From: Escherichia phage ETEC-TG
Sequence record: OR786310.1
Reading direction: 5' to 3' (one strand)
DNA: 64,000 nucleotides
Shown: one piece after another, positions 2,019 to 46,431 of the stretch
Layout of the letters: each line of letters begins with the position of its first letter
How positions within the stretch are numbered: position 1 is the first letter of the stretch
The notes under the pieces: generated by a model
What the model saw: the letters and a program-made list of their open reading frames with translations, nothing else
What the model was told of the DNA's origin: nothing
Database searches by the model: none
Position numbers and translations under genes: made by a program

Positions 2019-2019
2019 C

Positions 2020-5995: not shown

Positions 5996-6003
5996 GGGGT
6001 AAA

Positions 6004-8157: not shown

Positions 8158-8165
8158 GAGTAAAA

Positions 8166-10418
8166 ATGTCAACTACAATTACTAATTTACCCGAAACATC
8201 AAAAGTTAATGGTTCTGATTACCTGGTTTTAGACCAACCTGATAAGACTGTTAAAAGCACAGTTTCCAACTTTCTTACTGACACTGGGGTGGTTTTAGCC
8301 ACCCAGTTGAAAGATACAGATGGAGCTACCAAGTATCCAGAACTTCAGATTGCACGCTGGCGAGACGAGGGAGATATCAGAGGGTGGGGCACGGAAACAA
8401 ACGGTGATGTTACCGAAGCAATCATTGAGGCGGTAGCGGCGACAAGCGGCACTATCATTGTGCCACCTGGTGACTATGTTGCCACACCTACGCTGGCCGA
8501 AGTTCCGGCTGTGCTGAAATTGCTGTCCCGCGCTGATTTTCGTGGCAGGTTGACCATTAATCTGCCAGCTGGGACGGTCAATCTGAACGAGCAGACAGTC
8601 ATAAATTCTAACAGGAGTAATCTGTGCAAGGTCATTGGCGTAGCGCTAAACACGAGCGTTACAGGGCTTGTTTCTGTAGCTGGGTCAAGCAAGCAATATT
8701 CGATAACTCTGTCCCTGGCAGATGCCTCGCAGGTGTCAGTCGGTGACTATGCCATCTTCAGGCACGATCTGACGGGAACTGGTTTTTTCCACATACACTG
8801 CGGGGGCTGGCGGGTAACGGCTGTGTCCGGCAATAACGTGACCGTGCTCAACACATGCGTCTTGGATTCATTCCCTTCGTCAACCGTTACCGGTGGATCA
8901 GTCTCCATTATCAAGTCCGTTCTGAAATACACCGGCTGTGATGGGATTAGACCGGAGGGCGGCGACTGTATCGGAATTATTGATAATGTCGCCATCGTGG
9001 GTGATTACAACCTTGCTACCGGCGCAGGGACAATCGGTGCTCACGGCGTAATATCCTCAACACCCGTAGTAGTCACCGACGCCGCCAACGCATCCAACAA
9101 CGTAGCGAATATGGCGGCAGCGCTGGCCCTGGGACGAAATATTGCAATCAGTGCCTGGGGTGAGCAAGGGCTGGCAGTGTCGGGTCGCTCTGCGCTTGTG
9201 TGTAACTTCATCGCATCCTGTGCCAACCGTAAGCGTGGTATTTATGCGGAAGGTGCTCATATACGCGGGAAATTTATGATCGCCTCCGGAAACGGAGAGG
9301 ACGGCATTATTTCAGATACCACTGGATTTGTGCAGGCTGCATATGCCGTTTGCTCGGGTAACGGATTAAACGGGTTCTGGTCAACAAACCTCTCTCTTAT
9401 TGCGGCGGCAAGGGGAGTGGCTTGCTGTAACAAAACAAATGGTGTGGAGGCAAGGGGGCAGACAAGGCTCGCATTTGATCTCGGCCTTTCCTACGGAAAC
9501 GTTCTAAACGGTGTCAGCGCCTCTGATGGGGGCATGATTGACTTTGATGGCGGCATGTCAAGAGACAATCTCGTTGACGGGATCGCAGCGACATACAATG
9601 CAGTAGTTGACGCGAACAACGCCTCCAGTACCACCAATGGTCGTTACGGTACTAACGTGACCTCCGCGTGCATTATCATTTCAGGGACTGGTACTATATC
9701 TGGGAATACAGGGGCGGATGTTCGTGATAACGGCAATGGGATGGTTGTCCGACCAGACGGCACGATCTACCCATTCACTGGGGTCGCACAGGGTAATCTG
9801 TCGCTAAGAAACACCGTCAGCGGCGCGGGGGTTGACATTGTTCCTACAAGTATAGGTGACTTAATTCTGAGCTTTAAAAACTCAGCAGGCGGAACGCTTA
9901 ACCCGTTATACAACTTCAAAGCCGACGGTACTCAGTACCCTCAAAATGACGCGACGCAAAGCCTTGGGCGTGCCGCTAACCGATACAATGTCGGTTTCTT
10001 CGCTGGCGGAACACAGTCAACTTCAGATGCCACACTTAAAGACCCTATCCGGGAGTTCAATCAGGCCGAACTTAATGCAGCAATGCGAATCGCAAAAATG
10101 CTGGGTTTCTGGACATGGCTGGATGATGCCGGAAAACGGCTTCATGCAGGGACAACAGTGCAAGCGGTACTGGAGGTGCTGGAAGAAGAGGGACTCGACT
10201 GGCGTAACTATGGTTTCATCGGATTTGATGAGTGGGATGATGAATATATCCCAGTAACCATTGAGGTAGATGGCGAAGTCGTTGAAACAGGGGAAACGAA
10301 ATTAGTGCGTGAGGCTGGTTCTGTCTGGCAACTGCGCGATCAGGAATTTGACCGTTTCGTTATGCGTGGACTTTCTGAAAGGCTGAGTATTATAGAAAGT
10401 AAGCTGGATTTACTGTAA
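8166..10418 (+). CDS. Tailspike protein with beta-helix-like receptor-binding domain (GC-rich, mosaic)
   Basis: 750 aa; AT-rich conserved N-terminus followed by a markedly GC-richer body with Gly/Asn/Ser/Thr-rich repeats typical of pectate-lyase-type beta-helices. Confidence 0.55.
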   Translation: MSTTITNLPETSKVNGSDYLVLDQPDKTVKSTVSNFLTDTGVVLATQLKDTDGATKYPELQIARWRDEGDIRGWGTETNGDVTEAIIEAVAATSGTIIVPPGDYVATPTLAEVPAVLKLLSRADFRGRLTINLPAGTVNLNEQTVINSNRSNLCKVIGVALNTSVTGLVSVAGSSKQYSITLSLADASQVSVGDYAIFRHDLTGTGFFHIHCGGWRVTAVSGNNVTVLNTCVLDSFPSSTVTGGSVSIIKSVLKYTGCDGIRPEGGDCIGIIDNVAIVGDYNLATGAGTIGAHGVISSTPVVVTDAANASNNVANMAAALALGRNIAISAWGEQGLAVSGRSALVCNFIASCANRKRGIYAEGAHIRGKFMIASGNGEDGIISDTTGFVQAAYAVCSGNGLNGFWSTNLSLIAAARGVACCNKTNGVEARGQTRLAFDLGLSYGNVLNGVSASDGGMIDFDGGMSRDNLVDGIAATYNAVVDANNASSTTNGRYGTNVTSACIIISGTGTISGNTGADVRDNGNGMVVRPDGTIYPFTGVAQGNLSLRNTVSGAGVDIVPTSIGDLILSFKNSAGGTLNPLYNFKADGTQYPQNDATQSLGRAANRYNVGFFAGGTQSTSDATLKDPIREFNQAELNAAMRIAKMLGFWTWLDDAGKRLHAGTTVQAVLEVLEEEGLDWRNYGFIGFDEWDDEYIPVTIEVDGEVVETGETKLVREAGSVWQLRDQEFDRFVMRGLSERLSIIESKLDLL

Positions 10419-10484
10419 TTAAGAGCCGCTATCTCCTACTATGATGGCGGCAACCTTAAAATATTTACGTGGGGGAGCCACCTA

Positions 10485-10727
10485 ATGAGAAAATTTTTAA
10501 TAGGTATGTTTTGTACATATCCTGATAATAAAGTCAGTTCTACGAAAGTCTGGAACGCTGTAGGTATGTCGGTTATGACAGGCATGTTTATCTTTTTAGG
10601 AATAGAAAAAGAAATTCCTGAATGGATGGGTTGGGCTTTTGTTTTCATGATAACTCCTTCTCGCCTCATGAAAAATCTTATTGATTTACGCTGGGGCAGA
10701 TCACAATCTACCAAAGAGGATGACTAA
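10485..10727 (+). CDS. Small membrane protein (two predicted TM helices; holin-like)
   Basis: 80 aa, GGGGAG RBS, two hydrophobic stretches, charged C-terminus. Confidence 0.4.
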   Translation: MRKFLIGMFCTYPDNKVSSTKVWNAVGMSVMTGMFIFLGIEKEIPEWMGWAFVFMITPSRLMKNLIDLRWGRSQSTKEDD

Positions 10728-12214
10728 TGGACGAATATGGTTTGACAGATGCGGGATTTGTAATCCCGACTTTTGACGATGTTTTAAACAACTACATGAC
10801 AGCAGTAAAAAACACATTTGGTGCAGATGCAGCCACTTCGGAAGATACTGTGATCGGACAACTGTTTAGAATAATTGCATACACAGATTACACATTGTGG
10901 GAAGGTATGCAAGGTGTTTATAATACTCAAACACTAGATGGTGCAGAAGGTATTTATCTTGACGAAATCTTTTCTAAACGCGGTTTCTATCGAGCAGGGG
11001 CAGCAGCAAGTACAGGGTATGCCTATGTTAAGAGTAATAACAAAGCAGCTTGGACTTATGAGTTAGGCACAGATATTTACTTCAACTCTGATAGTGATAT
11101 GAACTACTATGTTAGCACACCAACTATGTTGAATGCTAAGATTGCAGCTTATCAAATCTCCCGTGCTAATGCAACAGCTACAGGTGTTCCAAATATTACT
11201 TTTTATGCACAAAGTGCGGTAGATGGAGGATTAAACAGTAAAACACTTGCACCTGGTTCTTCTACATTTATAACCGATCTTGAAACTTTTATCAAGGCGA
11301 ATTTAACAGAAGCTGATCGTAGTCTTGTATTTTCTGATTCAGGTAACTTGTCAATTGGTTTTACTTCTTTAACCAGTGATACTCCAGTGGGACTAGTAAC
11401 TCCTATCAAATTTTATGCCAGTGTTCCAGTTGGAACCAAATGGAGTGAAATTCCAGTAGTTGCAGCAGAGAAAGGATACAATCCTGTTGGTGTGGAGTCT
11501 ATTACAGGGATATCTTCTACCTTTACAGGTTATCTTGACAGTGGTAACTTTTATTCGTTTTCTCCTGGTCGGGATGTTGAGACAGACGCAGAATTCCGCT
11601 CTCGTTTCAATGACAACGTTGATGAAGCTAACGCAGGGACACGAGCAGCTATTGTGAAAGCTCTGTTACTTACAGATGGTGTCACTAAGGTGAAGATTTA
11701 TGATAACCCTACGTTACATGATCAAGAACACGCTCCGGCTATGACTTTCCAGACTATAGTGTATGGTGGCAGTGCAGAAGAAATTGCAAATGTTATCTAT
11801 AAAACCAAACCAATCAACACTTTGACACACGGAACAACTAACATAACAGTTACAACAGAAGATGGAGGACAAGAAATTATTCGCTTCTCTCCTGGTGCTT
11901 CTGCTATGTATTCCGTAAAACTTGTTTATCAAACTGTCAACGGAACAACTTTAAGTGGAACAGAAAAACAAAACATCGTAGAAGCTTTACAAAACCTGCA
12001 AGCTTACTTTGAGTTAGGTTCTTCAGTAACAAACGATCAAATCAAAGGTGTTATTTATGCAGCACTTGCTTTTGGACGCTTGACTTCTCTTCGTGTTTAT
12101 GTTAAACTTAATACTGAGGATGACAGTAAATATACAGAGAATAATATAGTTCCTGCTTATAATGTTGTCCCTTCTTTTGACCTTGATAACATTTCTTACG
12201 AGTATGGAGTGTAA
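10727..12214 (+). CDS. Baseplate J-like protein (gp6/gpJ family)
   Basis: 495 aa; N-terminal region (FVIPTFDDVL...LDGAEGIYLDEIFSKRGFYRAGAAASTGY) resembles the Baseplate_J family; context. Confidence 0.55.
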   Translation: MDEYGLTDAGFVIPTFDDVLNNYMTAVKNTFGADAATSEDTVIGQLFRIIAYTDYTLWEGMQGVYNTQTLDGAEGIYLDEIFSKRGFYRAGAAASTGYAYVKSNNKAAWTYELGTDIYFNSDSDMNYYVSTPTMLNAKIAAYQISRANATATGVPNITFYAQSAVDGGLNSKTLAPGSSTFITDLETFIKANLTEADRSLVFSDSGNLSIGFTSLTSDTPVGLVTPIKFYASVPVGTKWSEIPVVAAEKGYNPVGVESITGISSTFTGYLDSGNFYSFSPGRDVETDAEFRSRFNDNVDEANAGTRAAIVKALLLTDGVTKVKIYDNPTLHDQEHAPAMTFQTIVYGGSAEEIANVIYKTKPINTLTHGTTNITVTTEDGGQEIIRFSPGASAMYSVKLVYQTVNGTTLSGTEKQNIVEALQNLQAYFELGSSVTNDQIKGVIYAALAFGRLTSLRVYVKLNTEDDSKYTENNIVPAYNVVPSFDLDNISYEYGV

Positions 12215-12216
12215 AA

Positions 12217-12846
12217 ATGGCAGTGAGTGTTGACCATGTAACAACTTGGGCCAGTATCAATGAAGATGTTAAAAACCTTCTGATTGAAGATTTTAAATCT
12301 TCTCCTAACATTGTCAAGCTCCTCTACATCGTATCCAGTGAAAAGCAAAAGATAGATCAGGCAATGATCTATCTTGCTAAACACCGCTTGATCTCTACAG
12401 CCACAGGCAAATACCTAGATATTCTAGGGGAAGAAATGGGGATCGAACGTAATGGCTCTGATGATGAAGAGTATAGAACAATATTAAAAATCAGGGCTTA
12501 CCGCGTAGCCTCATCGGGGACTCGTGGTGACATAATTGATATCTTCGCCCGTTTCACAGGAACAGAGCGTGAAACGCTTAATACTTACGTAGGTTTGAAT
12601 AAAACCTTTGATGTGTTTTTCTACAACCTGTGTCTTCAATCTGATCAAGCTTTAGAGCAGTTGCTAAGTGTTTTCCCTATTATTAGTAGCTACCGTCTTG
12701 GAGCAAAAGCAGGATCAGCTTTTGGTTTTAGTTCTTATTATGCTACCAAACCGCCTCATGGTATTGGTGGTTTAGGTTCCCTGTACATGGAATCTACTGG
12801 GGATGAAACAGGACGCATGTGTACGCTTCTCAAGCAAATAGATTAA
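12217..12846 (+). CDS. Baseplate/tail protein, gpI-like
   Basis: 209 aa ORF directly after J-like gene, as in P2-type baseplate operons. Confidence 0.4.
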   Translation: MAVSVDHVTTWASINEDVKNLLIEDFKSSPNIVKLLYIVSSEKQKIDQAMIYLAKHRLISTATGKYLDILGEEMGIERNGSDDEEYRTILKIRAYRVASSGTRGDIIDIFARFTGTERETLNTYVGLNKTFDVFFYNLCLQSDQALEQLLSVFPIISSYRLGAKAGSAFGFSSYYATKPPHGIGGLGSLYMESTGDETGRMCTLLKQID

Positions 12847-12855
12847 GGAGTTTAA

Positions 12856-13917
12856 ATGGCGAAGCCAATATATTATCCTGACTGGGCTACACAAACTGTA
12901 ACGCTCCCAGGAACTTTAAACACAAACAAAATTAGACCTAAAGAAACGATCCGCACAGTTGGTATGGATTATGGTCAAATCATGACTTGCGAAGAAATGA
13001 ACTGGATTCTTAATAATATCGGTTTATGGATTCGCTATTTGGTGGATGACTTTCTTCCAACTTTACCTAATACCTACTTGCCTTTAGTGGGAACTAAGAT
13101 TACAATGGCAGGTGATGCTACTGGTGAGGCTACTTGGAACGGTAACAAAGAAGTTACTTTATCTATCCAGGTTCAAGATAACAGTCATAATCACTTGTCG
13201 GCAAACATTACAGATGCCACTAGTTCAACAGTAACACCAAACGTGCTGGTAAAACGTGATGCGGGTGGTGCTATTTATGGTGGCGATGTTTATGTTAACG
13301 GTACTTCCACAACAGATCCTGCAACACTGTTCTTCAAAAACTTTGCAGGACAAACAAATGGTGAGATTTCTGCCGAGTATCAAAGCGGAGGTCAGCTTTA
13401 TATTTATCGTAGAAATCCTAGCACAGGTAGTGTATCGGCAGGTGTTCGTTTATATGATGCAGGTTATGTTCTAATAGATAATCCAAGATCAAACAGTGGA
13501 CAAGATACTTCTAACGGAAATGCTTTAGTTCGTTTAGATTATCTGAACTCTCGTTTGACTTCCCTTCAGAACACATTGCAGACGAATATTAACACTGTTC
13601 AAAACAACTTGAATAATGTTAACAACAACCTCTCTTCTCGTATAAACAATGTAGAAAGTAATCATCAAAGTCAGATTACAAATAACTACAACTATGCTAA
13701 CGGAACCTTTGTAAGAGATATTCGTTATACTAGCCAAGGTGTGTATTATCCACCAGGGAACGAGGTTTCTTGGACTTATATCTGTTCTTCTGGTTATGTT
13801 CTTTCTGGTATTATCGTACAGGAAACAGGACGTAGCTCTGCGGATAACATCGGTGGGGTTTACTTCAAACGCCTCCAGCGCAACGTTAACGGAAACTGGT
13901 ACGATATTGGAGGCTAA
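12856..13917 (+). CDS. Tail fibre protein with coiled-coil shaft
   Basis: 353 aa; Asn/Gln-rich heptad region LNSRLTSLQNTLQTNINTVQNNLNNVNNNLSSRINNVESN; followed by a tail-fibre assembly gene. Confidence 0.55.
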   Translation: MAKPIYYPDWATQTVTLPGTLNTNKIRPKETIRTVGMDYGQIMTCEEMNWILNNIGLWIRYLVDDFLPTLPNTYLPLVGTKITMAGDATGEATWNGNKEVTLSIQVQDNSHNHLSANITDATSSTVTPNVLVKRDAGGAIYGGDVYVNGTSTTDPATLFFKNFAGQTNGEISAEYQSGGQLYIYRRNPSTGSVSAGVRLYDAGYVLIDNPRSNSGQDTSNGNALVRLDYLNSRLTSLQNTLQTNINTVQNNLNNVNNNLSSRINNVESNHQSQITNNYNYANGTFVRDIRYTSQGVYYPPGNEVSWTYICSSGYVLSGIIVQETGRSSADNIGGVYFKRLQRNVNGNWYDIGG

Positions 13918-32231: not shown

Positions 32232-33179
32232 CTACAAACTTTCAATAACCTGGCGTCGCAACTCATTTGCATCTGCCAGATTATAATGTGTTCGAACATG
32301 TTCAGCCAAGAACAAGCCACGATCTTCCCGATAGTTTGGATTGCGAAGAAGCTTAACAATTTCGTAATGCCATTCTGCTTTGTTCTCTGCGTAAGCAACA
32401 GCACGAGCATCTACAGGGTTAAAATAAGGTAATACTTTAGAACAAACAATCGGAATACCTTTTGCTCCAGCTTCCAGGATTTTGAGATTACTTTTACAAT
32501 TATTAAAATCATTATCTACCAAAGGAGCTATAGCAATAGCATGACTTTCGTAAACACTCATGTAATTATCTAAATCTTTTACAGCGGCTTTATATTTGGC
32601 ATTTGGTAAATTTCTGCGAATCTTAATCCATTCTTGTCCCGTGATGCTCTGTGATGCTTCATATCCCGCAATAGTAAGAAGTTCATCATCGAAAGTATTA
32701 GAGACTAGTCGTAAATCTGGTTCGTGACTAGCACCGCCAGCCCATACAACAGGGGTACCGGATGAACGATCATTTGACAAAGTGAATTGTCCACTATCAA
32801 AAGGAAGTGCATTTCGGATCACAACAACATTCCTATTTAAGTGACGGATCTTATATGCCAAATATTCTGTAGTCACAATAACCACATCAGCAAGCTTAAC
32901 CATAGCTACAATAGCATGAGTGTTTGACTCGTATAGATTTGCTAAATAATGTTCTGGATTAAGTTGGTAGAAATCATCTAAATCTACAACAATCTTAACA
33001 CCTTGACGTTTCAAAGATAAAACGTATTCTGCACCTTTAGAGTGGATACGGTTAAACACAACAACATCTTTCTTAGGTTGAAGATTATGGTTGTTAAATG
33101 GCATAACAATACGATGATAGTCACAACCGCTGTGAGGTTTTGCATCAATTTTTAGTTTAGACCATTTTTTATTTGACAT
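32232..33179 (-). CDS. Glycosyltransferase, GT-B fold (paralog 2)
   Basis: 315 aa; KSNLKILEAGAKGIPIVCS; collinear similarity to 31280-32224 product. Confidence 0.5.
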   Translation of the reverse strand: MSNKKWSKLKIDAKPHSGCDYHRIVMPFNNHNLQPKKDVVVFNRIHSKGAEYVLSLKRQGVKIVVDLDDFYQLNPEHYLANLYESNTHAIVAMVKLADVVIVTTEYLAYKIRHLNRNVVVIRNALPFDSGQFTLSNDRSSGTPVVWAGGASHEPDLRLVSNTFDDELLTIAGYEASQSITGQEWIKIRRNLPNAKYKAAVKDLDNYMSVYESHAIAIAPLVDNDFNNCKSNLKILEAGAKGIPIVCSKVLPYFNPVDARAVAYAENKAEWHYEIVKLLRNPNYREDRGLFLAEHVRTHYNLADANELRRQVIESL

Positions 33180-33852
33180 GTGCTAGTGCCTCCTCATAGG
33201 AAATTCGGATTTTCCCATTTTTAATATCCTCTAAAGATGCTTTATATTCTTCCCAGTTAATCCCGATAGCAGCTTCTTTCTCTTCTTTTGTCAGATTAGC
33301 AAAAGGCATAGGATTGTTTCCAAAAACATCGTCTGGGTGGATATAAGCCATGATACGAAGTGGACAAGGTGTTGCCTGAATACCATGATTCAAACCAGCA
33401 GCTTGTAAACGGTGTCCCCATTCAGCATCTTCAAAACCATAACCATGAGTGTAAGGACGGAAATAACCCATCTTCTCAACAACGGCACGAGAATACATTG
33501 CAAATTGACACATTGCAAGTTCCCAGAGAATAACTTCTCCTTTGCTTCCAACAACTTTATCTTTGAAGTACTCCGGCATACCAAAGAAATCCCATCCTCC
33601 AGAAACAGCTTGATCTACAAAGTATGTTTCCCATCCTTCCATGACTGGGTAGCAATCGTCGTCAAAAATAAACCAATAATCATAACCTTCTTCATAAAAC
33701 TGGTGCATAAGTTCATTCCTGGCATAAGCTACACCTTTACGATCTGGATCGTTGAATACTCGAAAATCTGCACGTGGATCTGTTACAAGGTAGTCTTTAA
33801 GTGGACGGACACCTACAGTGATAACACCCACTCCGATTTTAATATTTTCCAT
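33169..33852 (-). CDS. Glycosyltransferase, GT-A fold (DxD)
   Basis: 227 aa; FIFDDDCYP DxD-type motif; Rossmann-like N-terminus IGVGVITVG. Confidence 0.5.
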   Translation of the reverse strand: MENIKIGVGVITVGVRPLKDYLVTDPRADFRVFNDPDRKGVAYARNELMHQFYEEGYDYWFIFDDDCYPVMEGWETYFVDQAVSGGWDFFGMPEYFKDKVVGSKGEVILWELAMCQFAMYSRAVVEKMGYFRPYTHGYGFEDAEWGHRLQAAGLNHGIQATPCPLRIMAYIHPDDVFGNNPMPFANLTKEEKEAAIGINWEEYKASLEDIKNGKIRISYEEALAHVK

Positions 33853-33860
33853 TTTCTCTC

Positions 33861-34424
33861 CTAAATAGTTTTACTGTGATCGTGACAGTGTAATAAATGA
33901 TGTATAGACCGTTGAGGATTTGTTTGACCTAATCTGTAAATGTGAAACAGATACATTCCCCGCATCAATCCTAACCTCTTTCCTTTTTCATGTAAAGTGT
34001 GAGAGAAAATTAAGTCGAATTGGATAGATTTTTCTTCGAAAGGAATTTCATTCCACAATGATTTTCTAAAAAGCAAAAAGAAACCTGCCAGAGGTGTTCC
34101 GAAAGGAACTTCTTCAACACTCACTTTATGATATTCTCTTGCAATCTTAGCATATTCTATATGGTTTAGAATATCTGGATCATCGTTAATTTGGTTAGAG
34201 AAAAGCTGATAACCACTGCCTAACCTGTTACAAGTTGCACCTATTACATCAAAAGGCGGGTTTGACATAACAAGCTCTTCAAGCATAGATGGTTGATCAG
34301 GTAGGAGGAACATTGTATCGGTATCTCTTAAACACACCCAACTATCATCTGGAAGAACGGCAATGGCTTCATTGATAGCCTTGCCGATATTTCCTGTCAG
34401 ATAGGGAGTAATATAATAAATCAT
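33861..34424 (-). CDS. Putative glycosyltransferase-like protein
   Basis: 187 aa; CLRDTDTMF DxD-like motif; in glycosyltransferase cluster. Confidence 0.4.
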   Translation of the reverse strand: MIYYITPYLTGNIGKAINEAIAVLPDDSWVCLRDTDTMFLLPDQPSMLEELVMSNPPFDVIGATCNRLGSGYQLFSNQINDDPDILNHIEYAKIAREYHKVSVEEVPFGTPLAGFFLLFRKSLWNEIPFEEKSIQFDLIFSHTLHEKGKRLGLMRGMYLFHIYRLGQTNPQRSIHHLLHCHDHSKTI

Positions 34425-35747: not shown

Positions 35748-36350
35748 TTATGGACATTCATACCATTCTTTTTTACCACCGAAGGCCATCACCACATCGC
35801 AAATATCCAGACCAGCTTTACCTACACCATATGCTTTCAGCTTCCATTCCCCATCTTCACGAACCAAGGAAGCCACGTGGCAGATTGTGTTACCAGCTAC
35901 TTCAGGAGCCAGGAAGTCAAAATCCAGAATTTCCACATTGCGTTCGGAGTCAAAGATTTTAAGCATACCTTCAGAAGCATGACCAAAACGTTTCAGACCT
36001 GTATCATCATCAATGGTCAGAACAAAGGCAATCTCTTGTGCATCAGGAGAGATTTTAGCCAGAGTAATATCAATCTGCTCCATGCTGCCAGTCCCATCAC
36101 GAACATCGTCACCAGCGAAGGTAGAACGTTCAGGATCAAACTTGTTAGCGTAGCAAACCAGATGACGTGCAGACAGCATTTCAGGATTGCCAGCGGCATT
36201 ATGACGACAAACCAGTGCACTTACATCCAGATCCAGTTTAGAATCAGATTTCCAAGAGAATTCCAGGCGCAGTTCTTTCAGAGCCGGAGCAACTTTCTTC
36301 AGGGAAATTTTTTCGCTAGAGCCTTTTTTCAGGGAAATTTTATCAGTCAT
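35748..36350 (-). CDS. terD: TerD-family stress-response protein
   Basis: 200 aa; duplicated N-terminal EKISLKK strand; length and composition typical of TerD/TerE/TerZ family; GAGGAGA RBS. Confidence 0.65.
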   Translation of the reverse strand: MTDKISLKKGSSEKISLKKVAPALKELRLEFSWKSDSKLDLDVSALVCRHNAAGNPEMLSARHLVCYANKFDPERSTFAGDDVRDGTGSMEQIDITLAKISPDAQEIAFVLTIDDDTGLKRFGHASEGMLKIFDSERNVEILDFDFLAPEVAGNTICHVASLVREDGEWKLKAYGVGKAGLDICDVVMAFGGKKEWYECP

Positions 36351-36635: not shown

Positions 36636-36864
36636 TTCTTCCTCCTAATGTTATCTCCGGTTTGTATATACGAAGAATTATAGCATTTTCATTTTCTTTG
36701 TCAACCCATTCTTCATAATCGGGCCATACATGAATCTCTACTCTACTTACAATATCTTCCATTCGCACAGTCCCAATGAAATACTCTTTGAGACTGCGCA
36801 TAATGAAAGCTTCTCTCTCGCGCCAATAATTTTCTACGACTTGAGAGGCAAGCTCGTCGATCAT
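36616..36864 (-). CDS. Hypothetical protein
   Basis: 82 aa. Confidence 0.4.
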   Translation of the reverse strand: MIDELASQVVENYWREREAFIMRSLKEYFIGTVRMEDIVSRVEIHVWPDYEEWVDKENENAIILRIYKPEITLGGRSVKLRN

Positions 36865-37655
36865 TTTTTAGCACCTACTTTAACAACCCACTCTCCGAAC
36901 TCTTCAGATAAAAGTTTGTCATAAAGCTCTGAATCTGTCAAGTCTAAATCTTTAATGCCAATAAAACCAACATTATCATAAGCATTTGCCAGTTCTTTCA
37001 GGAAGCCAAACTTCTCATTACCAACGCCAACCATGAACCAATAAATAGGTTTATTCTTATTCTCTTCAATAAGACGACGAACAGCACTAGGATCACCATT
37101 CTCACCATCCGTCTGGAAGAATACAACACCAGGGGTAACGTCAGCACCTGGTTCAGATACAGCTACAACTTTTTCACGCTCTACAGACACTGTTTCAGTT
37201 TTACCAAGCAGACGATTAAAGAAGCCTTTCTTTGGAGCCTCCTCTTGTACCACTTGTTTAGTGGTAATATATTTGGTAACAGTGCCAAAATACTCATCGT
37301 AGATATCTGCCATTACAGGGGCGTAATTTGTTCCACCTCCGATACGAACATTGCGCATACATTTACCAACATAGTCATCGTAAACGTCTGCTGTTGCTGG
37401 AGTAAGCTCTTGGGAACTCGTATTAAAGGCCCACATATCAATTTGTTGATTATCGTCGAACAGCATACCAAAAGGAAGCAGTTTACCTACAAAATCACTC
37501 ACTACCCCACTAGAATATAGACCATGCATACTACCAGAAATATCTAGAGCACATGCTACACGAAGAACAATCTTACCTTCATTCAGGTTCTTATTCTTTT
37601 TCAGAGAGAAAGCAAGGTTTTCTTGACGTTTTTTCAGGCTGATTTTCTCGGACAT
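36861..37655 (-). CDS. von Willebrand factor A (vWA) domain protein, TerY-like
   Basis: 264 aa; MIDAS DISGSM plus GGTN; N-terminal MSEKISLKK shared with TerD; AAGGAG RBS. Confidence 0.6.
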   Translation of the reverse strand: MSEKISLKKRQENLAFSLKKNKNLNEGKIVLRVACALDISGSMHGLYSSGVVSDFVGKLLPFGMLFDDNQQIDMWAFNTSSQELTPATADVYDDYVGKCMRNVRIGGGTNYAPVMADIYDEYFGTVTKYITTKQVVQEEAPKKGFFNRLLGKTETVSVEREKVVAVSEPGADVTPGVVFFQTDGENGDPSAVRRLIEENKNKPIYWFMVGVGNEKFGFLKELANAYDNVGFIGIKDLDLTDSELYDKLLSEEFGEWVVKVGAKK

Positions 37656-39055: not shown

Positions 39056-39252
39056 TACTCCTCCTCCTCATTGAAGTCAATATCTGCAAGGAGTTCGAAT
39101 TTACGGAAGTTACGACAACCTTCATAAATATAACAATCACGACAAACTGCTAGAACACTTGGGGGATATATGCCTCCCATCGGTGCGAATCGTTTTTCGT
39201 CATCATAACGGACACCAATGTCTTCATCAATTATATAGATACGGATTCTCAT
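39055..39252 (-). CDS. Small Cys-containing protein
   Basis: 65 aa; CRDC ... C; acidic C-terminus. Confidence 0.35.
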   Translation of the reverse strand: MRIRIYIIDEDIGVRYDDEKRFAPMGGIYPPSVLAVCRDCYIYEGCRNFRKFELLADIDFNEEEE

Positions 39253-40361
39253 TTACCAAGCCCTCGTTTCACAGCAGCTACCATCCCGTCTTCCAGAGAT
39301 TGAACTTCATTAATATAATCAACACGAGCAGCACGGGCTTCCGTATTGATGCGGTTAGTTTCTTCCAGCATCTTAACCAAGTTTTCCTGATCGTGACGCA
39401 GAGTTTCAATATCCAACACTTGACGGTTAGCCAGTGCTGCTGCTTCGATCTGATTCTGTGTGGCAAGATCGCTACCCAGTTTAATTGCCAGGTTAAATTC
39501 ATCAAGAACGTTATTCTGCGTCTCTGCTGCTTTCATTTGACGTAAGCTCTCGATATACATTGAGAAGTTAGCAGAGTAAGCAGGAATAACATTATTTACT
39601 ATGTTACGCGCAGATCGCATTAAGCTTGCAGAAACTTTTTGCATACCTTGTACACGCGGTCCCATTTGGACACACAGTAGGCGCAATGCTTTTAAATCTG
39701 CAATACGAATCTCCAGAAGATCCAAAGTATCTCGGATCACTTGTCGCTGTTCTACTGCATCTTCTGGAAGAGCAGCCAAAGCTTGTTCTTCTTTTTCATA
39801 GGTTGCTGTTAGAAGCTGCATATCTCGGTTCAAACTTGCAGCATATTGTCCAATAGCTTGATGTAGCTTTTCAAGATATACCAAGGAATCTTCTTCTTTG
39901 CGAATATCCATTTGAAGGTTCTTTACCAACTCTTCAATACGGTTATTAACATTATCAAACTCCCCGAACAGGTCTTCTTTCATACCCATAACTTTTTTAA
40001 TGAGTTTAGTAATACCCTTGCTTTGTTTAATAGAGTTTGGATCAAGTTGTTTTGCCTGTTTAATCAAAGCTGTAAGTCGTTCACTCATCTGATCGCCTTG
40101 ATTACTACGTTGATGTTTTAACACCTCGGCATTCAAGGAACGCAAGGTTGTTCCTGCCTCTGCCCCAATCTCTTCAATCTCTTGTCGGGTCATAGAAGGC
40201 AAAACTGGAACTTCTTGCGGTGCCGCTGGTGCATAAACAGGACTGGCATCTAACACGCTTGGAGCGAATACAGATTTACTTGCATCTGTTGTTGCAGCGA
40301 ATACACTCATTTCAGACTTCTTCTGACCACCAGTAGCTGCTTTTAAAAATGGACTTGTCAT
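39249..40361 (-). CDS. TelA-like (toxic anion resistance family) coiled-coil protein
   Basis: 370 aa, predominantly alpha-helical/coiled-coil with TelA-like length and composition; located with TerC/TerD/vWA genes. Assignment by resemblance and context only. Confidence 0.45.
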   Translation of the reverse strand: MTSPFLKAATGGQKKSEMSVFAATTDASKSVFAPSVLDASPVYAPAAPQEVPVLPSMTRQEIEEIGAEAGTTLRSLNAEVLKHQRSNQGDQMSERLTALIKQAKQLDPNSIKQSKGITKLIKKVMGMKEDLFGEFDNVNNRIEELVKNLQMDIRKEEDSLVYLEKLHQAIGQYAASLNRDMQLLTATYEKEEQALAALPEDAVEQRQVIRDTLDLLEIRIADLKALRLLCVQMGPRVQGMQKVSASLMRSARNIVNNVIPAYSANFSMYIESLRQMKAAETQNNVLDEFNLAIKLGSDLATQNQIEAAALANRQVLDIETLRHDQENLVKMLEETNRINTEARAARVDYINEVQSLEDGMVAAVKRGLGK

Positions 40362-40948
40362 TCTTCATTCTCCTCTTCTGCATCTCTTATATATGGTGAA
40401 ACACCGTACTCTTTAGCTACTTTAACCCAATCATCCCATTTATACAACCATAATTTTCCTTCAGTTCCTTCTTTATCTGATTTCAACCACATGTTAGGTT
40501 GCTTGCCTGGGTACATGCGATTAGGTTTACGATTATAACCTCTAACACATCTTGTCGCAAACCTATCTACCAGAACAAGAACATATTTATACTCGTGGTT
40601 CAACGGCTCTTTGGAAGTGGCTTTAGGATTAGCCCCTAACTCTGCTGCCAGTTTTTGCCAATGAGCACCGTGCCTACTAAACTTACCCATACAACCATCA
40701 ATAGCGTGAGCAATTTCGTGCTTCATTGTATCCACGATCATATCTCTTGTAGAGTTCTTATGCAAGTGCCAATTTACAACAACAATTTTATCTCGGTAGT
40801 TGCACCAACCGAAAGAGTTATTCACTTTGTTTCTAACACAAGCTTTATATCCTGCTTCACGTAACATGTTGTAGTAAACAGGAAAATCTTCTTTTATTTC
40901 CTGCATCACTTCCCACCACAAGAGTTGCAAGTCTCTCTCGGTATGCAT
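40358..40948 (-). CDS. SprT-like zinc metallopeptidase domain protein
   Basis: 196 aa; HEIAH (HExxH) preceded by FGWCNY region typical of SprT-like domains. Confidence 0.55.
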   Translation of the reverse strand: MHTERDLQLLWWEVMQEIKEDFPVYYNMLREAGYKACVRNKVNNSFGWCNYRDKIVVVNWHLHKNSTRDMIVDTMKHEIAHAIDGCMGKFSRHGAHWQKLAAELGANPKATSKEPLNHEYKYVLVLVDRFATRCVRGYNRKPNRMYPGKQPNMWLKSDKEGTEGKLWLYKWDDWVKVAKEYGVSPYIRDAEEENEE

Positions 40949-41558: not shown

Positions 41559-41996
41559 TTAACGTCGCTTGCTACGAGATGAACTCTTTTTACTTAAAGG
41601 GCTATTGTAAGATTTACGAGTTGTATAGCTACTATTTGTTTTAAAAGTTTGTCTCGGCTTTTCATAAGTTTTTATCTCTTGTTTAGGCTTACCATAAAAA
41701 TTAGTTTTCGGTTTAGGTGTATTATAATGCTTATTAATAATCGTTCTGTTATCGTTATAATCCCCACTGCTACGATTACTACCGCCACTCATCATATGCC
41801 CTAACAACATACCTGTAGCAAACTCACCAACACCGCTACTACTAGAACCGCCACCATTGTTGATAATAGTTGTATCTCCGTCAGATCCTTGTTGAGCGTA
41901 TTGTTGAGGAGGTTGTTGGTATTGTGCAGGATTTGTTTCATCCTCGCAAGCTGTTAAAAAGATACAACCAATTAAAATCAGGGCTAGTTTTTTCAT
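41559..41996 (-). CDS. Lipoprotein (lipobox LTAC), Gly/Ser-rich
   Basis: Start moved to MKKLALILIGCIFLTAC with GAGGAAA RBS; signal peptide plus lipobox; basic C-terminus. Confidence 0.5.
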   Translation of the reverse strand: MKKLALILIGCIFLTACEDETNPAQYQQPPQQYAQQGSDGDTTIINNGGGSSSSGVGEFATGMLLGHMMSGGSNRSSGDYNDNRTIINKHYNTPKPKTNFYGKPKQEIKTYEKPRQTFKTNSSYTTRKSYNSPLSKKSSSRSKRR

Positions 41997-42179
41997 ATTT
42001 GCTTTCCTCGTTTTGGCTATTAATACATCTGTGTTTGAAATCTCCAGAGAAGCAATAAAGTTGCTCTCCATCTCGGTATAAACTCACTTTACTGCCGTTG
42101 ATTACGCTTGTCAATACAAAAATTACAACAAACAACCCTATTGCAAAACAGATATTTTCAAACACAACCAACAAGTATT

Positions 42180-42572: not shown

Positions 42573-43547
42573 TTAAACAGCAGCTTCTTCTTTTTCAGGG
42601 AAGATAAAGCTTGCAATAACACCAAGAGCTAATGTGCCTAGAACAATCATCAGACTTACGTTAGGGGAAATATCATGCGGGAAGAATGACCACTTGGCAT
42701 GAAGTGTTTCACCGAACGGGTGATACATAAGTTTAGCACCAACAAACACCAGAACCACAGCAACAGCTTTCTCTAAGTGAACCAGATATTTCACAGCTAC
42801 ACTCAACACAAAGAAAAGTGCACGTAAACCAAGAACAGCCATCAGCATTGCAGAATAAACTAGCAGAGGTTCTTGTGTCACACCGATCACAGCCGGAACT
42901 GAATCAAAAGAGAAGACAATATCTGTAAGCTCAATAACAAACACACAAAGAAGAGCAGGAGTTGCATATTTAATACCATTCTTAATGGTGATGAACTTTT
43001 CACCATCCAGTGCATTGTGCACAGGCAGAACTTTACCTACTAAACGAACAGCCCAATGCTTAGAGTAATCAATATCCTCTTCTTCGTCACCACCTTTGAT
43101 GATAGCCACGGCAGACCAAGCTACAATCAAACCGAACAACACTTGGACCGACCAATGAAGGTTAAACAAAGCGGTCCCTGCTGCAACAAAAATACCTCGG
43201 AAGACAATGGCTCCTGCAATCCCCCAAAGTAGAATCTTATGTTGGAGATGTGTGCTCTTAATTCCAAAGCTTGCAAAAATCGCCATGAACACCATCAGGT
43301 TATCTACAGAAAGACTCTTTTCCAACACATAGCCACTTAGGAAAAGCGCGGCAAACTCTTTACCATGTTCTACCCAAATGAATGCGTAATATCCTAAAGC
43401 TAAAGCAATCCAAAAAACAGACCAAAGCAAAGCAGATTTAATTCCAATTTCTTTATTCTCTTTATGACCAAAGAAATCGATACCAATAGACAATGCCAAA
43501 ATACCAACTAAAACAACTACATCAATAATTGGGAAACCGAGTTGCAT
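42573..43547 (-). CDS. terC: TerC-family integral membrane protein
   Basis: 324 aa; multiple TM helices; signature EKSLSVDNLMVF; GAGGAGA RBS. Confidence 0.7.
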   Translation of the reverse strand: MQLGFPIIDVVVLVGILALSIGIDFFGHKENKEIGIKSALLWSVFWIALALGYYAFIWVEHGKEFAALFLSGYVLEKSLSVDNLMVFMAIFASFGIKSTHLQHKILLWGIAGAIVFRGIFVAAGTALFNLHWSVQVLFGLIVAWSAVAIIKGGDEEEDIDYSKHWAVRLVGKVLPVHNALDGEKFITIKNGIKYATPALLCVFVIELTDIVFSFDSVPAVIGVTQEPLLVYSAMLMAVLGLRALFFVLSVAVKYLVHLEKAVAVVLVFVGAKLMYHPFGETLHAKWSFFPHDISPNVSLMIVLGTLALGVIASFIFPEKEEAAV

Positions 43548-43595
43548 TCTTTTCTCCTCTCTTTGCGGGGAACTATTCCCCGCTTCATGTGATAT

Positions 43596-43623
43596 ATCTT
43601 ACTCTTTTTAAGAACTGTGTCAA
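43596..43623 (-). promoter_or_regulatory. Sigma70-like promoter (TTGACA-N16-TAAGAT) upstream of TerC gene
   Basis: Minus-strand -35 TTGACA (43618-43623) inside conserved AAGTGTTGACA motif; -10-like TAAGAT 16 nt downstream. Confidence 0.4.
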
Positions 43624-43626
43624 CAC

Positions 43627-43848
43627 TTATTTTGTTGAATGAGAGGAAAAGATTCCTCGTAATACCGCCAGAATAAACGAAACACAAACCACGGTCCAGA
43701 AGGTTACTGGGACAGTGATATCTGCATGACCCATAACTTCAGCAACATAGTTGTAAGCCAGCAACAGTAACCAAGCTGGAATCAAACTAAGCATAAAAGC
43801 AATAACAAAAAAGCTTACCACTGCAACAATACCTGCAAAAACACCCAT
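43627..43848 (-). CDS. Small membrane protein (two TM helices)
   Basis: 73 aa, hydrophobic. Confidence 0.45.
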   Translation of the reverse strand: MGVFAGIVAVVSFFVIAFMLSLIPAWLLLLAYNYVAEVMGHADITVPVTFWTVVCVSFILAVLRGIFSSHSTK

Positions 43849-43860
43849 ACTAATCTCCTC

Positions 43861-44334
43861 TTAAAGTTTATAAATAGTCACATCGTGACCTGTTTTTACT
43901 AAAGTTTCTTCAATCATCACTTGGATGATAGCCCAATTACCTCCAGCATATCCAGCGCCAATCATAGGTAAGCCGATCTTACATTTTTGGTCACGGAGAA
44001 GCAAATCATTAGCCATAGCTATTAGTGCATCGTAAAGTGCATCATAGTCCAACTGACGACCTTTAGCATTGTATCCGTAACGGTATTGCCCGTATAGATT
44101 ATATACCAAAGGGTCTGATTGTTCGTCTGGCACCCCTAAACTAAAACAACCTAGTTTACTTTGATCACCAGCCATTGTGTCTAAGTCTGCTGCATATGCG
44201 TAAGGAAATGCTTGTTTGATTTGTGGGGCAATACCTGCCCCCATATTACACATACAGTTGCAACAATGAGCAATAACAGTTACTTCACCTGCTTTAGCGG
44301 CATCAATAAGATTACCTCTTTTCATTTTAAGCAT
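43861..44334 (-). CDS. Macro domain protein (ADP-ribose binding/processing)
   Basis: Start moved to ATG with TAAGGAG RBS; motifs GNLIDAAKAGEVTVIAHCCNCMCNMGAGIA and IGLPMIGAGYAGG resemble macro-domain signatures. Confidence 0.5.
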   Translation of the reverse strand: MLKMKRGNLIDAAKAGEVTVIAHCCNCMCNMGAGIAPQIKQAFPYAYAADLDTMAGDQSKLGCFSLGVPDEQSDPLVYNLYGQYRYGYNAKGRQLDYDALYDALIAMANDLLLRDQKCKIGLPMIGAGYAGGNWAIIQVMIEETLVKTGHDVTIYKL

Positions 44335-44347
44335 TTTTAGCTCCTTA

Positions 44348-45175
44348 TTACAGAATGTGTTGTTTTGTGTAACGATCCAAGAATTCAAAGTTTTCAGCAT
44401 ACTTTGAAATTCGGTTGTAACCTTCTCCCAAACATCCAAAGAAAAGTTGCTCTACATAGTAATGTGGCAATTGGCTAAGAATGATTTTGAAGTCTTCATG
44501 ATTTTGGCCCATAAGATACTTAATAGGACGAACAAGACACTGTGCATCACGTTCTTCATTAATCATTTTAACAAACGCTTCTGGTGTATTAATGTAGTTA
44601 AAATTCAGTTTAGCTTCGGTATCTGCTTGATTACCTTCGTATTTTGCAAAATACAAGAAGTAAACATCATTTTTAACTTGATTTTCATCAAGGATCTCAA
44701 TCAGTTTGTCTTCATGCGTTCCAGTGATATTTACATCATCAATGAATACAAGCTTCTTATCACCCCAGAATTCTTTGTTGCAGTAGAATGTATCCCCATC
44801 AATAAGTTTCTTACGACTAGCTTTATCCAAGAAACCATAATCGTTGATATAGCTAACTTTACGATGAATAATGTCCAGTTCTGCTGAACGACCTTGATCA
44901 TATTGTGATTGCAACATATTAAAGTAATTAATAAAATGATCTGTCATCATTGTTGCAGCATTATGCACATGGTTGTAAGGAGAAGGGATGATAACAAATT
45001 GTTCCCCAATATGTTTCATTGCCACTTGAGCAAAAAACTGAAGTGCCAATTCTTTACCCATACGACGCGCAGCCTGGTTACTACCAAATTTCAATTTTGA
45101 ATAATCTTTAATATCAAAAGTAGCAGTTTCCAGGTCATCAAATTTATTTGCAAAAATTTGAGTTTGATTACGCAT
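44348..45175 (-). CDS. Phosphoribosyltransferase-fold (PRTase) protein
   Basis: 275 aa; PRPP-binding-loop-like motif KLVFIDDVNITGT; GAGGAGA RBS. Confidence 0.55.
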   Translation of the reverse strand: MRNQTQIFANKFDDLETATFDIKDYSKLKFGSNQAARRMGKELALQFFAQVAMKHIGEQFVIIPSPYNHVHNAATMMTDHFINYFNMLQSQYDQGRSAELDIIHRKVSYINDYGFLDKASRKKLIDGDTFYCNKEFWGDKKLVFIDDVNITGTHEDKLIEILDENQVKNDVYFLYFAKYEGNQADTEAKLNFNYINTPEAFVKMINEERDAQCLVRPIKYLMGQNHEDFKIILSQLPHYYVEQLFFGCLGEGYNRISKYAENFEFLDRYTKQHIL

Positions 45176-45824
45176 TTACAATTTCTCCTCTTTTAAGTTT
45201 CTCTAGTAAGTCGTTAGGGTTCTTAATATGACAGAAGTTAAATCCTAAGTCAACACATTTTCCATCATATTCTTCACTATCGCCTACGTGCAATACTTCG
45301 TGCCCTAACAGAGGGATCGGAGAATACGTGAGCGTGCGAGCAAAGAATCGCGGATCTGGTTTACAAAGTAAAGCTTCATCCGAGAAATGGGTGAACTCAA
45401 AACAATTCCAACTATCAAACTTACAAGCACGACGCAGGATATCCCCTGATATGAAGTTGGTATTGCTCTTAATACTCAAATCATAACGCCCCGAAAGATA
45501 CAGCAAGTACATCGGCAGATCCACGGCTACGTGTGGTGGAAACTTAAGGAACCACTGTTCACACTCGAAACGAAGCTTTGCAGACTTCCAAGGCGTTATC
45601 CCAAGTTCAGAACCAAGTTTTTCCCAGGCGTATGCTGCACACTCGGCTTTGCCTTGAAGTGCTGCATTATCCAGTTCCTTTTTGATCTTCTTATAAGCTG
45701 CTCTTGCTTCCACTTCCGTAATATCTCCATATTTTGCGATAGTCCAGGCTCGCATATCTGCGTAATTGGAGTTTGCTGTGATCAGTGTGTTCCATACATC
45801 AAAAGAGATATGTTTAATAGTCAT
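45168..45824 (-). CDS. HAD-superfamily hydrolase (subfamily IA-like)
   Basis: 218 aa; motif I FDVWNTL, motif II SIKSNT, motif III CKPDPRFF, motif IV HVGDSEEYD. Confidence 0.6.
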   Translation of the reverse strand: MTIKHISFDVWNTLITANSNYADMRAWTIAKYGDITEVEARAAYKKIKKELDNAALQGKAECAAYAWEKLGSELGITPWKSAKLRFECEQWFLKFPPHVAVDLPMYLLYLSGRYDLSIKSNTNFISGDILRRACKFDSWNCFEFTHFSDEALLCKPDPRFFARTLTYSPIPLLGHEVLHVGDSEEYDGKCVDLGFNFCHIKNPNDLLEKLKRGEIVNA

Positions 45825-45825
45825 A

Positions 45826-46431
45826 TTAAGCCCACCATGCGTCTAAGTTAAGATTACTGTCCACTACCACTTGTTCTATGTGGTAGCCTTTTATCTGTAT
45901 CCCACTGTTCAAGAGCATATCATACGCTTCATTGAAACGCAACTTATCTTCTGCGGAATATAAGCGAGCATTATAAAATCGGTAATCAATTTCTTCAGCA
46001 TTAGAAGAAATACGGAAGAAGTTTGTTTCTACTTCGGGATCACTTGCTGAAGTCTTAATGTGAACTTCTCCGTAATTTTCTTTACTTAGATCCATGAAAA
46101 GAACACAGGCAACATGTTTAAACATTCGTTCCAGTTTGTAACGAACAACATTGAAACCTGCATTCTCAAGTTTTTCTACACACTGCAACATTAAAGTAGT
46201 GTCGAGATCGCTTTGATACTTTGTTAACATACGATCACGTTGAGACTTTGTATCCCGATGTAAATCAATTGTTGTGCATTTGGCACCAATAATCTTAGCT
46301 GCTTTCATCAACTCTTCAGAACTAACGTTAGATAAAGTAAGATGAAAATGGGCTTTCCACACTTTTTTAGCAGGGACACCAAAAGATTTATCCCCACTAT
46401 TCGGCATGTTGACTACTACACTATGTTGCAT
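45826..46431 (-). CDS. Hypothetical protein
   Basis: 201 aa; contains one HLTL motif but no convincing second 2H motif. Confidence 0.4.
   Translation of the reverse strand: MQHSVVVNMPNSGDKSFGVPAKKVWKAHFHLTLSNVSSEELMKAAKIIGAKCTTIDLHRDTKSQRDRMLTKYQSDLDTTLMLQCVEKLENAGFNVVRYKLERMFKHVACVLFMDLSKENYGEVHIKTSASDPEVETNFFRISSNAEEIDYRFYNARLYSAEDKLRFNEAYDMLLNSGIQIKGYHIEQVVVDSNLNLDAWWA

Follow-up and report, generated by a model that had tools for sequence, protein, structure and literature searches.

A HAD hydrolase and a PRTase_3 phosphoribosyltransferase form a frequently Ter-linked pair beside a probably independent macrodomain gene in Escherichia phage ETEC-TG

Our analysis of a 64,000-nucleotide stretch of Escherichia phage ETEC-TG (sequence record OR786310.1; the whole stretch is called the window below) concerns three neighbouring genes that encode a hydrolase of the HAD superfamily, a phosphoribosyltransferase (PRTase) of the PRTase_3 family and a small macrodomain protein. 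The HAD hydrolase and the PRTase are a tightly coupled two-step unit that recurs in distant phages and bacteria, and the locus is, on balance, probably a mosaic of this unit, a HAD-PRTase_3 biosynthetic cassette of the Ter kind, and an independent anti-defence macrodomain gene, rather than the single metabolite pathway proposed in an initial annotation made from the sequence alone. Both kinds have been described before, the Ter PRTase-HAD module computationally and the AdfM/SCO6735 kind of macrodomain experimentally, and the two units of the window join them. The three genes are:

45824..45168, minus strand: HAD-superfamily hydrolase of 218 amino acids (aa), REG-2-like with a subfamily IA cap, first gene of the conserved pair
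45175..44348, minus strand: PRTase_3 (PF15610), a ComF-like type I phosphoribosyltransferase of 275 aa, assigned from Pfam and a structural model
43861..44334, minus strand: stand-alone macrodomain of 157 aa, phage Tk.4/AdfM family (ALC1/TARG1/SCO6735-like class), assigned by homology

Results

A pair conserved in order and sometimes fused

Relatives of the PRTase were located in 15 viral and 15 genome loci, and the proteins of the window were mapped onto the open reading frames (ORFs) of these loci. In every one (15/15 viral, 15/15 genome) the gene directly upstream of that for the PRTase encodes a HAD protein, and these 30 loci cover phi92-like phages, jumbo phages (195-350 kb), rhizobial plasmids and metagenome-assembled genomes (MAGs) of Bacteroidota; on the Rhizobium plasmid pRL10 the pair stands as an isolated two-gene operon. 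Searched exhaustively with a profile, 1.84 billion representatives yielded only 856 members of the PRTase_3 family. The two domains also occur in single-chain HAD-PRTase_3 fusions of 486-544 aa, whose domain order is the same as the gene order, and in one PRTase-HAD-PRTase_3 protein of 841 aa. Pfam identifies P0174, P0196, P0281 and P0170 as fusions, P0230 and P0217 also show the D-x-W-x-T N-terminus, and all the fusion HAD parts inspected carry this motif. Because the two genes are adjacent in 30 of 30 loci and are fused in a fixed order, HAD and PRTase_3 form a tightly coupled two-step unit. Among PRTase_3 relatives there are also multi-PRTase proteins of 920-1150 aa.

The PRTase family occurs in 156 of 50,697 phage records. 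A tblastn search for PRTase_3 over 72,556 plasmid records found it only on plasmids of Rhizobium, Sinorhizobium and Hymenobacter, and on none of the enterobacterial ter plasmids.

In the window the HAD, PRTase and macrodomain ORFs are co-directional and contiguous, and their family matches are far above chance level. The initial annotation had described three overlapping genes; the three co-directional ORFs are where it placed them and the HAD and PRTase reading frames do overlap, by 8 nucleotides (nt), but the macrodomain gene does not overlap that of the PRTase: it starts at an ATG at 44334, preceded by an AAGGAG ribosome-binding site, 13 nt past the PRTase stop. A 192-aa macrodomain ORF that does overlap the PRTase gene was rejected as a mechanical extension to a TTG, the proteins of annotated relatives and T4 Tk.4 being 155-157 aa long (474 nt in the relatives).

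Dozens of phAPEC8-like E. coli myoviruses of ~150 kb (Phapecoctavirus, Stephanstirmvirinae) match the surrounding ~4 kb at 95-99.5% identity, and at least 80% of this segment is present in 70 phage records, which keep the order of the three genes. Deposited annotations in these relatives call the HAD protein a 'hydrolase', the PRTase a 'putative orotate phosphoribosyltransferase' or a 'hypothetical protein', and the macrodomain protein a 'phosphatase'. Over this region two records assigned to other hosts, MG065650 (Campylobacter phage B15) and OP562383 (Acinetobacter phage ABPW7), share 98-99% identity with E. coli phapecoctaviruses; probably they carry wrong host labels or are contaminants.

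The PRTase_3 protein and its HAD partner

The PRTase matches PF15610 with 142.8 bits (cut-off 28.7) over positions 9-264 of the 264 in the profile, and all 120 of the homologues listed carry this family. A sequence search against the Protein Data Bank (PDB) gave no match to any solved structure. Its AlphaFold2 model (pLDDT 92, pTM 0.89), compared with the PDB by Foldseek, gave 53 matches at E<=1e-3, and the 50 listed are all of the type I PRTase fold (HGPRT, ComF, PyrR, APRT), with hypoxanthine-guanine PRTases (HGPRT) first (E ~2e-6), followed by Helicobacter pylori ComF, PyrR and adenine PRTase (APRT). An additional helical domain, residues 186-275, has no equivalent in these structures and keeps the TM-scores down to 0.3-0.45. 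ComF (PDB 7P0H) and HGPRT thus have the type I core in common with PRTase_3 (Foldseek E 2e-6 to 7e-5) at ~11-18% identity, whereas PRTase_3 lacks the ComF zinc finger and adds the C-terminal helical bundle.

The protein contains the KLVFIDDVNITGT loop. Its loop of the phosphoribosyl pyrophosphate (PRPP) type spans residues 141-155, LVFIDDVNITGTHE, in which a hydrophobic strand ends in two acidic residues and is followed by the phosphate loop, and in the model the geometry of strand 141-149 and helix 153-164 suits such a loop. In an alignment of 48 homologues (44-80% identity) D146, D147, T151, G152, T153, H154 and E155 are invariant, as is the loop S65-P66-Y67-N68 after the first core strand; within the flexible loop 94-118, which has lower model confidence, R105, Y109, D112, Y113 and G114 are invariant and K106 nearly so. 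The PRPP loop is non-canonical: it reads ...DDVNITGTH, with His at the last position where Ser or Thr is usual. We are confident, from the model, that the protein adopts a type I PRTase fold with a conserved though divergent PRPP-type loop. The initial annotation, which had read the protein as a phosphoribosyltransferase fold with this loop and had made its proposal depend on a PRPP-binding loop in the structure, is supported here by the PF15610 match, the type I fold of the model and the conserved acidic pair and T-G-T, and the strand, acidic pair, loop and helix are all present in the model, the sequence of the loop being divergent.

The HAD protein matches phrog_14393 ('hydrolase') at E 2e-117, scores 21.3 bits against Pfam Hydrolase, under the cut-off of 26.4, and gives weak partial matches to REG-2-like/IA HAD models of NCBIfam and a weak match to PDB 2OM6. 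It had been introduced as a HAD-IA hydrolase with all four motifs. Motifs II (S120, in S120-N-T), III (K155) and IV (G-D182-S-E-E-Y-D187) are indeed conserved in the alignment, as is the nucleophile D9, but motif I reads FDVWNTL and has Trp11 in place of the general acid/base at Asp+2, so that it does not have the D-x-D form. The site is Trp (once Tyr) in every full-length partner HAD aligned, and the Trp motif is found in all 5 fusion proteins inspected. This substitution hints that the second step would be something other than routine dephosphorylation.

Ter genes around the pair

Downstream of the pair and on the same strand lie genes for TerD, vWA-TerF-like, TelA and TerC proteins; the Ter genes, at 35.7-43.5 kb, belong to a co-directional 10-kb block:

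42573..43547, minus strand: TerC-family integral membrane protein (PF03741)
40358..40948, minus strand: SprT-like metalloprotease-family protein (PF10263), coupled to TelA
39249..40361, minus strand: TelA, toxic anion resistance family (PF05816)
36861..37655, minus strand: vWA-TerF-like protein (PF10138)
35748..36350, minus strand: TerD-domain protein (PF02342)

Homologues of TerD, vWA, TelA or TerC are encoded at most 10 kb from the pair in 10 of the 15 viral loci and 2 of the 15 genome loci. In a Tannerella MAG (L033, Bacteroidota; 1996-13489) the order is TerD-TerD ... vWA-vWA-TerY(vWA+TerY_C)-PP2C-protein kinase-HAD-PRTase_3-P-type cation ATPase, linking the pair with both the TerY phosphorylation switch and a cation pump. 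The suggestion that a transferase beside a phosphatase is the arrangement predicted near bacterial Ter genes has therefore held up well, with the pair adjacent throughout, fused in several proteins and accompanied by Ter genes in the same block.

Anantharaman, Iyer and Aravind reportedly predicted, in 2012, the synthesis of a nucleoside-like metabolite by Ter-associated PRTase and HAD proteins. The module of the window has the same PF15610 PRTase and HAD partner amid TerD, TerC, TelA and vWA-TerF-like genes, and it shares with the Ter module, as a prediction, the two-stage logic in which a ribosyl-phosphate conjugate is made and subsequently acted on at a phosphate. It differs in its carrier, a 150-kb lytic coliphage instead of a bacterium or a jumbo phage, in its minimal form, the neighbours scanned having yielded neither an ATP-grasp protein nor a TIM-barrel lyase, and in its HAD, which has D-x-W and not D-x-D. 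Phage Ter systems with PRTase and HAD 'signal biosynthesis' have been reported, with competition against superinfecting phages as the proposed role (Iyer et al. 2021, PMC7824862).

Several other features of the block were noted. The SprT-like gene, which overlaps telA by 4 nt, is found in loci L006 and L007 and was undetected in L004, L005 and L008, as a variable add-on to the Ter block. A 170-aa protein (41559-42071, minus strand), kept between terC and telA in related phages, contains within it a hydrophobic, lipoprotein-like segment, LALILIGCIFLTAC, after which comes a low-complexity stretch rich in Q, G and S. Two adjacent glycosyltransferase-like genes lie at 33169-34424 (minus strand), one of them weakly matching the TET-associated glycosyltransferase (TAGT, E 1e-3), and their homologues are close to Ter/PRTase genes in a distant 153-kb phage (L016, 15505-17241). 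The GC skew of the window changes sign at ~22 kb and ~58 kb, which points to a possible switch of gene orientation there, and the Ter/nrd block is wholly inside the minus-strand segment.

The macrodomain gene

The third protein is a macrodomain, as first thought: it scores 21.6 bits against PF01661, just under the cut-off of 22, and matches phrog_335 at E 4e-55 and, in the PDB, SCO6735 (E 2.5e-12), BT1257 (1.3e-8), the DarG macrodomain (1.4e-6) and TARG1 (5e-6), with a weak partial match to Poa1p (E 1.8e-3, residues 41-127). It is 34% identical to T4 Tk.4 (E 7e-21). Its characteristic residues are H23, N26, N79, Q83 and the loop P123-x-I-G-x-G. Q83 aligns with Gln85 of SCO6735 and is invariant in the window protein, T4 AdfM, the proteins of L006 and L013, SCO6735 and BT1257, and yeast Poa1p (sequence matched to 6LFQ) has Leu and Ser at the positions of N79 and Q83. 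Identity as a DarG antitoxin was ruled out: the protein has 157 aa, reaches 34 bits against the NCBIfam DarG model (cut-off 250), matches the PADLOC DarG model (E 5.6e-10) at positions 1-144 of 329 only, that is, in its macro part, and is encoded next to a PRTase and a 73-aa membrane protein.

Two characterized proteins are informative. On DarTG2 hosts, tk.4 alone among the T4 genes was found to be required, and it received the name AdfM (preprint, bioRxiv 10.1101/2025.11.20.689424). SCO6735 hydrolyses thymidine-linked ADP-ribose on DNA and protects against DarT, for which it needs Gln85 where DarG and TARG1 have Lys (PMC9411070). Tk.4/AdfM is the same kind of stand-alone phage macrodomain of ~155 aa, with the same H-x-x-N, N...Q and P-x-I-G-x-G residues; it comes from another phage family and neighbourhood, and the anti-DarTG2 phenotype is that of AdfM, the window protein being known by its sequence. 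SCO6735 (Streptomyces coelicolor, PDB 5E3B) is the best match of solved structure and has the same catalytic Gln (Q85 there, Q83 here) instead of the Lys of DarG/TARG1, while the window protein has Ala at the position of SCO6735 Lys34 and another sequence in the loop that follows Gln83, and is viral, not cellular, in origin. Gln83 and the homology to AdfM and SCO6735 favour a DNA de-ADP-ribosylating, anti-DarT2 role, and the gene is most likely an independent anti-defence gene whose product would remove ADP-ribose from DNA thymidine and so neutralise DarT2-type toxins.

The distribution of the macrodomain is not that of the pair. Its family occurs in 2,979 of the 50,697 phage records, ~19 times the count of the PRTase. 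Among the 30 loci it adjoins the pair only in the Stephanstirmvirinae-like ones (L004-L008) and lies 7 kb away in one jumbo phage, leaving 25 of 30 pairs without an adjacent macrodomain gene. Even where the two are neighbours the junction varies, with 1-2 extra ORFs between PRTase and macrodomain in L005 and L006, and none of the ten multi-domain PRTase_3 relatives scanned contains a macrodomain. The inclusion of this gene in a PRTase/HAD pathway is not supported, in view of its absence next to the pair outside Stephanstirmvirinae-like phages, of its far greater frequency and of the independent anti-DarTG2 role of T4 AdfM.

The idea that the genes make or recycle an NAD- or ADP-ribose-derived molecule against NAD-depleting immunity fares no better. 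The PRTase is neither PRPP-synthetase-like nor NAMPT-like: its only family match is PF15610, the listed fold matches are HGPRT, ComF and PyrR, the domain-library search found no PRPP-synthetase or NAMPT family at E<=0.01, and no such genes are present in the operon. An anti-defence role is plausible for the macrodomain alone, against DNA ADP-ribosylation, and not against NAD depletion. The closest real analogue of the NAD proposal is NARP1-AP (Adps-Adpp-Namat), a phage operon for NAD reconstitution in which Adps is PRPP-synthetase-like, Namat is NAMPT-like and the macrodomain Adpp is an ADP-ribose-1''-phosphate (ADPR-1''-phosphate) phosphatase (bioRxiv 10.64898/2026.01.28.702374). Like the locus of the window it combines a macrodomain with enzymes that handle ribose phosphates, but it has Adps and Namat in place of a PF15610 PRTase, its Adpp is Poa1p-like whereas our macrodomain is closer to SCO6735/DarG, and it lacks a HAD enzyme. 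Membership in NARP1 or NARP2 was rejected, as there are no matching families and the operon neighbours are HAD, p201 (described below), macrodomain and 73-aa proteins.

Flanking genes and transcription

The three genes are flanked by two small ones:

45826..46431, minus strand: p201, a protein of 201 aa, 1 nt upstream of the HAD gene and outside the conserved pair, with a PADLOC 'AbiEi' match
43627..43848, minus strand: predicted membrane protein of 73 aa (phrog_16065; Pfam none)

From nrdD (start 48933) to the 73-aa gene no terminator-like hairpin with a T-run was found; this span has two weak minus-strand hairpin matches (47116-47094 and 44889-44873), both inside coding sequence and with poor T-tails. 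Given the lack of a terminator between the genes and the order kept in 70 phage records, p201, HAD, PRTase, macrodomain and 73-aa protein are likely co-expressed. Phages, however, normally co-transcribe accessory genes that have nothing to do with one another. The 73-aa gene always comes next after the macrodomain gene in Stephanstirmvirinae-like loci, ahead of a promoter-like site upstream of terC (43623-43596); terC is followed by a strong terminator-like hairpin (42566-42549), and similar features are annotated in the record of a relative. A search for RNA elements ahead of terC, such as a yybP-ykoY (Mn) riboswitch, was negative: Rfam gave no match at the gathering threshold anywhere in the window and only chance-level matches in 43400-43900.

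Neither Pfam nor NCBIfam assigns p201 to a family, and its fold has no convincing match in the PDB. Its model is a tandem ferredoxin-like structure, it matches two PADLOC 'AbiEi' models over nearly the full length of p201 (E 5e-13), and H28, H30, T32, E122, H124 and K126 are invariant. Judged by these matches, p201 may be an anti-defence gene of the orphan-antitoxin type. A distant homologue (L038, 7001-7534, in a 110-kb phage contig) has an Acb1 (anti-CBASS) gene as its immediate downstream neighbour and a NADAR gene close by.

Discussion

From the domain identities, the PRTase fold, the conserved residues, the gene order, the fusions and the distributions of the two units we infer a chemistry, substrates and biological roles along the following lines. 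First, the PRTase would move ribose-5-phosphate from PRPP to a base-like acceptor held by its own helical domain, as its fold and conserved loop suggest. Second, the D-x-W HAD would process a phosphate on the product of the PRTase or on a by-product. In the published prediction this enzyme removes a 5'-phosphate to leave a nucleoside; the missing general acid could instead point to a substrate with a good leaving group or to a different chemistry, and this step is the weakest. Third, the resulting nucleoside-like small molecule might work with TerD, TerC, TelA and vWA proteins at the membrane during infection, as the linkage of the genes suggests. Published proposals for its role are that it could be a signal that excludes superinfecting phages, or that it could protect the infected cell from stress. 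Separately, the macrodomain protein would repair ADP-ribosylated DNA, to judge from its homology and its conserved catalytic residue.

Some observations weigh against the division of the locus into a Ter cassette and a separate anti-defence gene, or against parts of it. The PRTase, macrodomain and 73-aa genes are tightly packed, with no terminator between them and an order conserved in the 70 phage records. The rhizobial plasmids and the Rhizobium and Brevundimonas phages examined have the pair without Ter genes among the annotated neighbours, and in the window the pair follows nrdD-nrdG; the Ter link is therefore frequent, not obligatory. A literature search for PF15610/PRTase_3 returned no mention of the family and no biochemical data on any member, and we know of no product, substrate or phenotype for any PRTase_3 or for its HAD partner; nor, to our knowledge, has PRTase activity been demonstrated for ComF, a structural relative. 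The Trp at Asp+2 leaves a conventional 5'-phosphomonoesterase step uncertain. As for the macrodomain, the ADPR-1''-phosphate phosphatase Poa1p is a better match for T4 AdfM itself (E 2.8e-6) than SCO6735 is (E 3.3e-4), and therefore sequence alone does not fix the substrate; moreover, the evidence on AdfM comes from a preprint and concerns a homologue only 34% identical.

The same facts can be arranged differently. The HAD-PRTase_3 pair could be a Ter-independent module of the nucleotide pool or of salvage, in which a normal or modified base and PRPP would give a nucleotide or nucleoside for phage DNA or RNA synthesis. Its position directly downstream of nrdD-nrdG agrees with this, as do the purine salvage PRTases among its structural neighbours, its solitary occurrence on pRL10, and Rhizobium phage RHph_TM2_3B (L039, T4-like; 4519-6855), where HAD-PRTase and one small ORF are followed by a gene for a bifunctional nicotinamide mononucleotide (NMN) adenylyltransferase/Nudix protein, with DHFR and PurA genes near the pair and no Ter genes annotated. 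However, a dephosphorylating enzyme after a salvage PRTase would undo the salvage, a family with 856 representatives in 1.84 billion is tiny and specialised, the pair is repeatedly embedded in Ter/TerY-kinase-phosphatase clusters, and the unique C-terminal helical domain and divergent PRPP loop are unlike those of a standard nucleobase PRTase, all of which make us regard this alternative as unlikely.

We think it rather improbable that PRTase_3 is a non-enzymatic regulator that binds a ligand or nucleic acid in the manner of ComF or PyrR, with the HAD as a non-phosphatase or regulatory partner. In its favour are the appearance of ComF and PyrR in the fold comparison, the absence of the Asp+2 general acid from the HAD and the unusual His of the PRPP loop, but the acidic pair, T-G-T, the S-P-Y-N loop and the Arg, Lys, Tyr and Asp of the flexible loop are kept across the 48 sequences in the way of a catalytic site, the HAD strictly retains its nucleophile Asp and motifs II-IV, and the fixed HAD-PRTase order of the fusions suggests consecutive enzyme steps. 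Least probable of all is joint handling of an NAD- or ADP-ribose-derived molecule by PRTase, HAD and macrodomain, such as the rebuilding or recycling of NAD against NAD-depleting immunity in the way of NARP1-AP, to which the contiguity and conserved order of the genes, the existence of a real phage operon that unites a macrodomain phosphatase with PRPP-synthetase-like and PRTase-like enzymes (bioRxiv 10.64898/2026.01.28.702374), the detectable relationship to Poa1p and the NMN adenylyltransferase/Nudix gene one small ORF downstream of the pair in a single Rhizobium phage lend something, and against which stand the exclusive match of the PRTase to PF15610 with its fold neighbours other than PRPP synthetase, the many pairs without an adjacent macrodomain, the variable junction, the lack of macrodomain fusions among the ten multi-domain relatives scanned, where HAD fusions are common, and the SCO6735-type N...Q residues that Poa1p does not have.

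With the locus taken as a Ter cassette next to a separate anti-defence gene, a bolder version can be put forward as a tentative possibility. The D-x-W HAD and PRTase_3 might make a ribosylated molecule by non-canonical HAD chemistry, and this molecule could be a signal or cofactor of the phage for its own Ter complex (TerC/TerD/TelA/vWA), reprogramming or sealing the cell, for example against superinfection; the flanking macrodomain and p201 genes would then be counter-defence genes of the orphan-antitoxin type, together a small anti-defence islet.

The function of Ter systems and the nature of the predicted 'nucleoside-like metabolite' have been a standing question since at least 2012. The phage cassette is about the smallest version available: it consists of two overlapping genes, in some organisms fused to encode a single protein, and is carried by a lytic coliphage with relatives that can be grown on E. 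coli K-12. A cassette so small and tractable could allow the molecule to be identified directly by heterologous expression and liquid chromatography-mass spectrometry (LC-MS). Separating the macrodomain gene from the pair avoids a wrong annotation as an 'NAD-recycling operon', and it predicts that therapeutic phages of the phAPEC8-like group would resist DNA ADP-ribosylation of the DarTG2 type.

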